A DNA stretch of 64,000 nucleotides from an uncultured bacterium (GCA_949296605.1 CASFPB010000039.1:7766-71765); one strand, 5' to 3'. Counted from the stretch's first letter, positions 16,014 through 21,404 are shown. Made by a program: numbers and translations. The notes: a model not told the origin generated them from the letters alone.

Positions 16014-16136
16014 ATGAGTTGTTGTAAAAAAGAATGCGACCCATGCAGTGGCAATGGATTTACTGCAAGCTATGCATTTATAGTATTAATATTATTTATT
16101 TTACTTGCCATTATTTGGGGCGGTGCTTTTTATTAA
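16014..16136 (+). CDS. Tiny YjcZ-family sporulation membrane peptide, Cys-rich head (40 aa)
   Basis: Not in the ORF track. RBS taaggaggt lies upstream. Sequence is MSCCKKECDPCSGNGFTASYAFIVLILFILLAIIWGGAFY. Confidence 0.6.
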   Translation: MSCCKKECDPCSGNGFTASYAFIVLILFILLAIIWGGAFY

Positions 16137-19660: not shown

Positions 19661-20032
19661 TTACTCCTTAATTAATTTATATACTTCATCGTTAGTATAT
19701 TTGTGTGTTTTTTTATCATAATCAGGTAAAATATGTAAATGAAGATGTTTTATAGCTTGGACATCACCATAATTAATTAAAAATGTTACTCCTTTTTTAT
19801 TTAATTTTTCCATAATTATTTTGGCATATTCTTTAGCTTTGGTAATCATTTTATTAAAAATTTCACTATCAACATCATAAATATCTTCATAATGTTTCTT
19901 AGGTATTACTAATGCATGACCATCAGTATCTGGATAAGCATCAAGCAAAACCATAATATCATCATCTTCATATAATATTTTACTAGGAATATCTCCATTA
20001 ATAATCTTACAAAATATGCAATTGTCTTTCAT
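19661..20032 (-). CDS. HIT family (histidine triad) protein
   Basis: CIFCKII N-terminus and the HLHLHILP triad. Confidence 0.85.
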   Translation of the reverse strand: MKDNCIFCKIINGDIPSKILYEDDDIMVLLDAYPDTDGHALVIPKKHYEDIYDVDSEIFNKMITKAKEYAKIIMEKLNKKGVTFLINYGDVQAIKHLHLHILPDYDKKTHKYTNDEVYKLIKE

Positions 20033-20123
20033 TTAAATCACCATCCAAATTATAACACGTGTAATATTATTTAGTAAATGTAATTAATATGAATATTTTT
20101 TTAATTATATTATAAGAAAAAAA

Positions 20124-20152
20124 TTGTATTCAAATATAAATTATGATAATAT
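20124..20152 (+). promoter_or_regulatory. SigA-type promoter of the cysK leader
   Basis: -35 ttgtat (20124-20129), 17-nt spacer ending in TGn, -10 taatat (20147-20152). Confidence 0.5.
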
Positions 20153-20207
20153 ATATTTACCTGTATTATAAAAGGATTTTTAATAAAATGGAGGAAATTT
20201 AAAAAAT

Positions 20208-20273
20208 ATGAATATAATAGAATATAAAAATTGTAATTGTTGTATATGTAAAAATGTAAATAAAATTACATAA
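20208..20273 (+). CDS. Candidate 21-codon Cys-rich leader peptide upstream of cysK
   Basis: MNIIEYKNCNCCICKNVNKIT has 4 Cys codons within 6 codons (20232-20249). ggagga lies 12 nt upstream. The stop is 3 nt before a segment that can pair with the terminator 5' arm. Confidence 0.4.
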   Translation: MNIIEYKNCNCCICKNVNKIT

Positions 20274-20304
20274 ATTTTCATATGAACTAAAATAACTGAA
20301 CATT

Positions 20305-20343
20305 AAACTTCATATTATAGTTTGTATGATATGAAGTTTTTTT
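20305..20343 (+). terminator. Intrinsic terminator (putative attenuator) in the cysK leader
   Basis: About 20-bp stem aaacttcatattata / tatgatatgaagttt (one U-G pair), 5-nt loop gtttg, then a T-run. It lies 30 nt upstream of the cysK ATG. Confidence 0.7.
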
Positions 20344-20372
20344 ATGTCAAAGCAAATGAAAAGAGGTAAAAA

Positions 20373-21317
20373 ATGATAGATAATATAATTGGAAATACCC
20401 CAATGGTTAAAATTAAATATGAATATAACAAAAATATAAAAAATATATATGCAAAACTAGAATATTATAATTACACCGGTAGTATAAAAGATAGGTTAGC
20501 TTTGTATATTTTAACTGAATCAAAACGGATGGGATTATTAAAAGATAATCAAATTATTGTTGAAGCAACGAGCGGTAATACTGGAATTAGCTTTGCGGCA
20601 TTAGGGGGTTATTTTGGGCATGAAGTTCATATTTTTATGCCAACAAGTGTAAGCGTAGAAAGAAGAAAATTAATAGAACTATATGGAGCAAAGTTACATT
20701 TAATTGATGCTGGATTTAAAGATACAATAAAAGAAGCTGACTTGTATGCTAGAAAAAATAATGCATTTAGGCCGAATCAATTTAGTAATATAATGAATAT
20801 AAATGCCCACTATTATGGAATAGGAGAAGAAATAATAAACAAATCTTTAAATATAAATGGATTTGTTAGTGGAATAGGAACTGGCGGAACACTAATGGGA
20901 GTAGGAAAAAGACTAAAAGAATATAATAAAACAATAAAAATAATAGCATTAGAGCCTAAAACTATGCCATTATTAAGTGAAGGAATAATAATTGGCCCAC
21001 ATAAAATTGAAGGAATAGGAGACGACTTCATACCAAAATTAGTTGATAAAAGCTTAATTGATGAAGTAATACTTATAGATGATGAAGATGCAATTAATAT
21101 GAGTAGAATATTATCTCAAAAATATGGCTTAGGAGTTGGAATATCAAGTGGTGCAAATTTTTTAGCAGGGGCAATTAGTGAACTAGATAACTTAGTTACT
21201 GTTTTTGCAGATGACTCAAAAAAATATTTATCTACAGATTTGATAAAACCTATAAATAATGATAAAAATTTAATTTCAAATAATATAAAAATAATCAATA
21301 TAGAATTTATTAAATAA
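20373..21317 (+). CDS. cysK: Cysteine synthase A (O-acetylserine sulfhydrylase)
   Basis: PLP-lysine motif GSIKDR, ATSGNTGISFA and GIGTGGTLMGVG. Confidence 0.9.
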   Translation: MIDNIIGNTPMVKIKYEYNKNIKNIYAKLEYYNYTGSIKDRLALYILTESKRMGLLKDNQIIVEATSGNTGISFAALGGYFGHEVHIFMPTSVSVERRKLIELYGAKLHLIDAGFKDTIKEADLYARKNNAFRPNQFSNIMNINAHYYGIGEEIINKSLNINGFVSGIGTGGTLMGVGKRLKEYNKTIKIIALEPKTMPLLSEGIIIGPHKIEGIGDDFIPKLVDKSLIDEVILIDDEDAINMSRILSQKYGLGVGISSGANFLAGAISELDNLVTVFADDSKKYLSTDLIKPINNDKNLISNNIKIINIEFIK

Positions 21318-21404
21318 AATAAAAAAAGATAACTAAAAAGTAAATAACCGAAAAGTGTTCATTTGACTATATCTTGCATATATTTAATTAGGAAGGTGAT
21401 TTAC

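Follow-up and report, generated by a model that had tools for sequence, protein, structure and literature searches.

The 64,000-nt stretch of DNA analysed here, hereafter called the window, comes from an uncultured bacterium with a genome of 1.16 Mb and 25% G+C, and contains the only cysK-like gene of that genome. Together with its leader, this gene forms a 1.3-kb insertion (window 20033-21362) between a divergently transcribed HIT-family gene and cotE, an arrangement shared with one genome of the same genus (G008); in most same-genus genomes HIT and cotE lie about 50 nt apart. The original prediction for this region had listed a promoter, a 21-codon ORF (20208-20273) with four TGT codons, a terminator (20305-20343) and the cysK start, all of which were found at those positions (Table 1). 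It had interpreted them as a trp/his-type attenuator for cysK that reads Cys codons, and the analyses described below support this interpretation, with a design conserved in 18 loci, covariation of both helices, and neither a known riboswitch nor a T-box in the leader. Elsewhere in the window (16014-16136, + strand), just upstream of an ABC-transporter ATPase gene (16201), we noted an unannotated 40-codon ORF, MSCCKKECDPCSGNGFTASYAFIVLILFILLAIIWGGAFY, with a good Shine-Dalgarno (SD) sequence, a Cys-rich N-terminus and a hydrophobic tail, the product of which we take to be reminiscent of YjcZ-type small sporulation proteins.

Table 1. Features of the cysK leader and of the downstream gene, in window coordinates.
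Feature	Position	Strand	Description	Basis
Candidate promoter	20124-20152	+	-35 TTGTAT 20124-29; 17-nt spacer; extended -10 TGaTAATAT 20144-52 (TG 20144-45, TAATAT 20147-52)	sequence
SD of leader ORF	20190-20195	+	GGAGGA; spacer of 12-13 nt to ATG, longer than optimal	sequence
Leader ORF	20208-20273	+	MNIIEYKNCNCCICKNVNKIT, 21 codons; stop TAA 20271-73	translation
Leader Cys codons	20232-34, 20238-40, 20241-43, 20247-49	+	TGT; four Cys in six codons	
Small hairpin	20254-20271	+	UGUAA-N6-UUACA, 3' end of leader ORF	centroid and MFE folds
S2, antiterminator 5' strand	20278-20289	+	UCAUAUGAACUA; begins about 4-5 nt past the leader stop	duplex with S3
Inner-helix linker	20291-20316	+	AAUA 20291-94:UAUU 20313-16; UGAA 20297-20300:UUCA 20309-12	nascent-RNA folds
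S3, antiterminator 3' strand	20318-20329	+	UAGUUUGUAUGA; terminator apex (last 2 nt of 5' arm, loop, first 5 nt of 3' arm)	
Intrinsic terminator	20305-20343	+	5' arm 20305-19, loop 20320-24, 3' arm 20325-39, U-run 20337-43 (U7)	
Short ORF	20344-20376	+	MSKQMKRGKK, 10 codons; overlaps cysK start; its ATG is ATT in G008	
cysK-like gene	20373-21317	+	CysK/CysM-family PLP enzyme, 314 aa; SD AGAGG 20362-66	Pfam PALP, 1.9e-61

The leader spans about 135 nt from its start codon to the U-run, and its fold as a whole is more stable than those of shuffled sequences (z = -2.6). The candidate promoter matches the -35 consensus at only three of six positions and was not singled out by a consensus promoter scan, which returned 19 promoter-like sites against 18.6 expected from shuffled sequence; in comparison with G008 the -35 hexamer (there TTGTTT) and the block AATTATGATAATATA are conserved, and the spacer and flanks have diverged. 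A long SD-to-ATG spacing in the leader ORF, which had been named as a caveat, is indeed present at 12-13 nt, and the leaders of relatives carry AAGGAG about 8 nt upstream of the ATG. The Cys codons of the window are interspersed with other codons (C-N-C-C-I-C), leaving no clean run, and the small hairpin at the 3' end of the ORF, the stem letters of which are conserved in G008, could serve as a candidate RNA polymerase pause hairpin. Further downstream, the terminator hairpin (20305-20339) has 15 bp and a folding energy of -15.1 kcal/mol, with the end of the U7 tract 29 nt upstream of the cysK ATG (20373). A terminator scan gave no match at 20305-20343, because it needs three G-C pairs and this AT-rich stem has only two. 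The terminator is placed between the candidate promoter and its gene, and terminates no other gene, since the upstream neighbour is the divergently transcribed HIT-family gene. The non-conserved 10-codon ORF that follows the U-run is probably a remnant from the loss of a second upstream ORF (uORF) present in relatives and described below.

Among 36 same-genus genomes, the cysK-like gene is present only in G008, with 95% amino acid identity and 94.7% nucleotide identity of the coding sequence. The block from S2 to the terminator is 96% identical between the two genomes (79/82), and all three differences fall at unpaired positions. In contrast, adjoining non-coding DNA is 55-66% identical and the upstream intergenic DNA 55%, and the body of the leader ORF is conserved at 66%, its frame kept open through an in-frame 3-nt indel, so that the G008 leader peptide MKFILKNNYCKSCCDKIVKKIT keeps three Cys codons. 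Beyond the genus, protein scans of GTDB species genomes and metagenome contigs yielded about 150 loci, and a homologous leader is common to about 18 loci with cysK orthologues, from MAGs of uncultured gut Bacilli with 60-95% amino acid identity; orthologues in the leader-bearing MAGs assigned to Candidatus Coprovivens and others are 60-75% identical. In the 16 loci beyond the window and G008, the leaders contain Cys runs from CCC to CCCCC. The mini-ORFs of relatives are led by an SD, lie 135-150 nt upstream of cysK, carry three to five Cys codons (often CCCC) and are followed by a terminator, e.g. MNKRNLLNCCCCSCISFFRVNS, MTKCCCCCSFCFFLPY, MKKLCCTICFNNNCNERYKFFHMN and MTKRFSTICCCCELKIFCRVNS. 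Conserved Cys mini-ORFs with terminators upstream of cysK, for which the original prediction had suggested a search in relatives, were found in 18 loci. Leader length varies from 11 to 24 aa, and the peptide is unconserved except for the Cys codons and the C-terminus that overlaps S2, with no alignable residues across clades. No Cys mini-ORF was found upstream of the Methanobrevibacter orthologues, which are about 56% identical.

Two further arrangements were seen upstream of this gene family. In two MAGs labelled Clostridiales (L076:2308-2464 and L078:2301-2475), non-homologous mini-ORFs ending in CCC (MNLVIVTNCCCM and MNKNIISKLNKRCCCK) precede the same cysK family, with strong hairpins and terminators alongside, which suggests independent or strongly diverged candidate Cys attenuators. 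Four other loci (L040, L043, L037 and L041) have a tRNA gene upstream of cysK and no Cys leader; what is left there of the terminator 3' arm (…TATGATA…TAGGAGG) seems to act as the direct SD of cysK, so the leader has apparently been lost or truncated several times.

TGT codons arise easily by chance in AT-rich DNA, as had been cautioned, and a count over all six frames of the window's genome gives 69 six-codon windows with at least four Cys codons. The leader holds the only such cluster within an intergenic, start-led short ORF. A second start-led cluster, on contig C30, was dismissed because a 324-aa ORF on the opposite strand encloses it. A covariance model built from the S2-to-terminator region of 11 majority-type leaders, with the Cys run not included, found exactly one strong copy in each of 11 relatives' genomes, always before cysK; weaker matches in those genomes were ordinary terminators. 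In the window the model found the correct place with a weak match (19 bits, E = 0.68), and the leaders of L107 and L036 were missed. A class-wide genome search with the model, which scored 10 of the roughly 3000 loose candidates in each genome, gave a single match, an ordinary GGAGG-containing terminator. A known riboswitch or T-box in the leader had been named as an observation that would speak against attenuation; no Rfam 15 family was matched at gathering score in the window or in the loci of 15 relatives, and a search up to E = 10 over 20000-20420 returned nothing relevant, with no T-box, SAM (S-box) or other known riboswitch.

The conserved block is predicted to form two alternative helices. 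The 7-nt complementarity between 20280-86 and 20309-15, originally put forward as the antiterminator, is present in the sequence but is not the conserved pairing, which is instead a 12-bp helix between S2 and S3 (20278-89:20318-29; -12.3 kcal/mol, z = -3.7). In folds of the nascent RNA, the inner helices (20291-94:20313-16 and 20297-300:20309-12) sequester the rest of the terminator 5' arm; in relatives this inner part of the antiterminator is weakly conserved, with 60% of cells paired. Single-sequence folds predict a terminator in every locus, and when the 3' arm is omitted, a strand at or just past the leader stop pairs with the terminator apex in 18/18 loci, over 10-12 bp. In 17 of the 18 loci, this S2:S3 pairing scores z of -2 to -6 against shuffled S2. 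Both helices also covary. For the terminator, 98% of cells are paired across 11 aligned relatives, five pairs show double changes, and 0/500 shuffles reach as high a value. For S2:S3, with 12 distinct sequences, 81% of cells are paired versus 30-51% when one strand is slid, in an alignment hand-anchored on the helix, which favours pairing but not covariation; 8/14 pairs have double changes, and again 0/500 shuffles do as well. S2 and S3 were anchored by hand because MAFFT misaligned the window-type against the majority-type terminators and because the covariance model recovered the window weakly. Within the majority clade alone, where the helix is too conserved, no antiterminator covariation was found. 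By their coordinates the two structures are mutually exclusive, since the helices cross and there is 0 nt between S3 and the 3' arm.

Which of the two helices forms depends on ribosome position in silico. With an assumed ribosome footprint of -15 to +14 and nascent RNA ending at 20329-31, the probability of S2:S3 pairing was 0.97-0.98 without a ribosome, 0.97-0.98 with Cys codon C9, C12 or C14 in the A site, and 0.09-0.12 with the stop codon in the A site. The proposal that a ribosome at the Cys codons frees the antiterminator, and that one at the stop codon masks it, is thereby borne out in nascent folds. In the full-length leader at equilibrium, the terminator always forms, at any ribosome position, and ribosome masks do not discriminate; the switch must therefore be kinetic, as in other attenuators. 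Relative to the leader stop, S2 is found between -15 and +18 nt in all loci; some stops fall within S2 or at its end, and others precede it by up to 4 nt. The stops of the window, G008, L107 and L036 precede S2 in this way, and in the window a terminating ribosome would consequently cover only some 7 nt of the 12-nt S2. Folds of the window predict no 1:2 protector helix that pairs S2, and the 20254-71 hairpin leaves S2 out; as ribosome-free nascent RNA is also predicted to form the antiterminator, untranslated RNA should read through.

On this evidence, the window leader is most probably a cysteine-responsive, ribosome-mediated transcription attenuator before cysK. We infer translation of the leader, a response of the system to cysteine, and coupling between polymerase and ribosome, to which a pause at the 20254-71 hairpin may contribute. 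Transcription would begin from the promoter about 50 nt upstream of the leader ORF, and the ribosome on the leader would act as a gauge of the Cys-tRNA(Cys) supply. When Cys-tRNA is ample, the ribosome would reach the stop codon (20271-73), its footprint would cover the first half of S2, and with S2 masked and unable to pair with S3, the 15-bp terminator and U7 would form, and polymerase would halt 29 nt short of cysK. A shortage of Cys-tRNA would instead make the ribosome stall on the four TGT codons (20232-49), leaving 29 nt or more between it and S2, so that S2 could pair with S3 once S3 emerges while the inner helices occupy the remainder of the terminator 5' arm; the terminator would then be blocked, and polymerase would read through into the cysteine synthase gene. 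Several points count against this model, namely the long SD spacer, the interrupted Cys run, the stop ahead of S2, the lack of a protector helix, the weak match to the covariance model, the need for a kinetic decision and the hand-anchored alignment behind the S2:S3 counts. In addition, at least in Bacillus subtilis, transcription and translation are considered to be loosely coupled.

Some of these points can be read as signs of decay, with the window element a relic that regulates nothing and cysK expressed constitutively at a level limited by the terminator. The second uORF has been lost and the frame has shifted so that the stop precedes S2, and the Cys run is broken, the SD spacing poor and the match to the family model weak. 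We regard this as unlikely, because S2, S3 and the terminator are 96% conserved compared with 55-66% in adjacent non-coding DNA, with the three differences unpaired; moreover, the window and G008 both keep the ORF open with at least three Cys codons, the stops of L107 and L036 likewise fall just before S2, and the fold simulation still separates ribosome positions. Alternatively, the helix switch may be real but set by an RNA-binding protein or a small ligand, with the Cys ORF incidental or auxiliary. The absence of an Rfam match, the shortness of the element (about 65 nt from S2 to the U-run) and the lack of a conserved pocket-like junction make this rather improbable, and it leaves unexplained why an SD-led ORF with a Cys run occurs in all leaders, with its stop on or next to S2. 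What speaks for it is that the RNA helices are the best-conserved part of the element, that untranslated RNA is predicted to antiterminate by default, and that sulfur amino-acid genes in Firmicutes are usually controlled by T-boxes, S-boxes or protein regulators.

The mini-ORF might also matter for its product, a functional Cys-rich micropeptide (metal-binding, redox-active or modified), with the hairpin as its terminator and cysK expressed by leak-through or from its own promoter. The SD and start codon of the ORF, and its conservation as a reading frame, would fit this, and Cys-rich small proteins exist in the genome, e.g. at window 16014-16136. This explanation is very improbable nonetheless, since the peptide is unconserved beyond the Cys codons and C-terminus and varies in length (11 to 24 aa), the neighbouring genes include none for modification or export, and the ORF always accompanies cysK, into different genomic contexts. 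As for a chance coincidence of a TGT-rich ORF and a hairpin in AT-rich intergenic DNA, the 69 TGT clusters in the genome and the chance rate of promoter-like sites could be cited in its favour, but the design recurs before orthologues in 18 loci with covariation, and this conservation in relatives, as judged from the sequences, is the decisive evidence against chance, to which we give next to no credence.

The attenuator reading also bears on the gene that it would control. The gene product scores 285 bits with the NCBIfam cysKM model, below the 344-bit cut-off, and its best solved relative is Fn1055 of Fusobacterium nucleatum (PDB 5B53; 283 bits versus at most 216 bits for canonical CysK). 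The product thus named cysK is nearest to Fn1055 rather than to canonical O-acetylserine sulfhydrylases. Fn1055 is a cysteine (hydroxyl) lyase, which interconverts cysteine plus water and serine plus H2S (PMC9865163). In profile searches, no CysE above cut-off was detected in the window's genome or in 12 leader-bearing relatives. The window enzyme may make cysteine from serine and sulfide, and the proposed induction at cysteine shortage would suggest that the enzyme works in the cysteine-forming direction. The regulatory logic here helps to annotate the gene: an Fn1055-like enzyme in CysE-less genomes that is switched on when cysteine is short should run towards cysteine.

In all relatives except the window and G008, a second uORF lies directly after the terminator U-run (e.g. 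L033:2423-2476, L039:2418-2498 and L046:2422-2535). Its product follows the pattern M-F-K-K-x-V-N-(T/S)-(I/V)-R-C-(C), and the GGAGG in the terminator 3' arm provides its SD. The CGA-TGT codon pair is invariant, and variation is concentrated at third codon positions. In five loci (L045, L046, L054, L066 and L056), this uORF stands alone before cysK. Its R-C-C codons and the pyrimidines that follow pair with the SD and start codon of cysK in 14/14 loci folded; in a manual pair count 77% of cells of this helix pair versus 43-60% when slid, with no covariation, and RNAalifold found no consensus structure in the region. This uORF may add a translational stage of Cys sensing, of the mycobacterial type, and the window has lost it.

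The position of the cassette varies as well. In other species the HIT-cotE spot is occupied by a polysaccharide-deacetylase-like gene, a lipoprotein-like gene or an SDR, which makes it a variable insertion site. In relatives, the leader and cysK are found in unrelated contexts as a monocistronic unit, so leader and gene travel together. A joint reading of these observations, possible but doubtful as a whole, is that gut Bacilli lacking CysE carry a 'cysteine on demand' cassette, a self-contained unit of leader and gene that moves horizontally, with two-stage sensing of Cys-tRNA and an Fn1055-type enzyme. Within this joint reading, the transcription attenuator in the CCCC-type leader would be the first stage. 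The second would be the uORF MFKKxVN(T/S)IR-C-C, with a conserved nascent peptide and a rare-codon pair, CGA-UGU, that would stall the ribosome on the helix hiding the cysK ribosome-binding site. The enzyme would use serine and gut H2S, not O-acetylserine, for a one-step synthesis of cysteine, and the window would represent a reduced, one-stage version.

In class Bacilli, sulfur amino-acid genes are expected to be under T-box, S-box or protein regulators, and ribosome-mediated attenuation is considered rare. Neither the window RNA nor any Cys attenuator in Bacillota turned up in a search of the literature. The principle itself is not new, and the original prediction, which had known of no description for Cys-cysK, needs correction here: leaders with Cys codons have been shown to act in mycobacteria and are predicted in Actinobacteria and Rhodobacterales. 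The polycysteine short ORFs of mycobacteria (the 'Cys ribulon' of Canestrari et al.) have been shown experimentally to raise expression of cysteine-metabolism genes through ribosome pausing at Cys codons (bioRxiv 10.1101/834739). Those leaderless ORFs regulate translation, in that they unmask a downstream ribosome-binding site, whereas the window ORF has an SD and about 50 nt between the -10 element and ATG, and would act through an intrinsic terminator; no helix that pairs the Cys tract and sequesters the cysK ribosome-binding site was found in folds of the window. The second uORF of relatives is closer to the mycobacterial mechanism than is the leader ORF of the window. In Rhodobacterales, uORFC-8-2 upstream of cysS is a predicted tandem-Cys uORF with a terminator stem and U-run, proposed to work by ribosome-mediated attenuation (PMC8632094), but it differs in host (alpha-proteobacteria), in regulated gene and in having its Cys codons inside the first stem, and no similarity to the window was detected. 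For Actinobacteria, short ORFs with consecutive Cys codons were predicted in 2005 ahead of genes for cysteine biosynthesis (PMC1262725), without a recognisable terminator, unlike the clear and covarying terminator of the window element.

In design, the window leader resembles trpL and hisL of E. coli and Salmonella and Rli60 of Listeria monocytogenes, with an SD-led short ORF rich in codons for the end product, an antiterminator (2:3) that overlaps a terminator (3:4), and a leader stop from which a terminating ribosome can block the antiterminator. Its folding energies, about -11 to -12 kcal/mol for the antiterminator and -15 kcal/mol for the terminator, come near the values for Rli60, the experimentally demonstrated ilv-leu attenuator of Listeria, also of class Bacilli (-10.3 and -17.1 kcal/mol; PMC5864092). 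The window leader differs from these classical systems in sensing, as proposed, cysteine, and has no sequence or Rfam relationship with them. Unlike the trp leader, it is without a 1:2 protector helix, so that its untranslated RNA should escape termination, and the 3' strand of its antiterminator is the terminator apex and loop rather than mainly the 5' arm. If the attenuator reading holds, class Bacilli also use a cysteine attenuator read by the ribosome, and the family offers a compact, conserved and testable example of one, in which natural variants place the leader stop before, inside or after the antiterminator strand.
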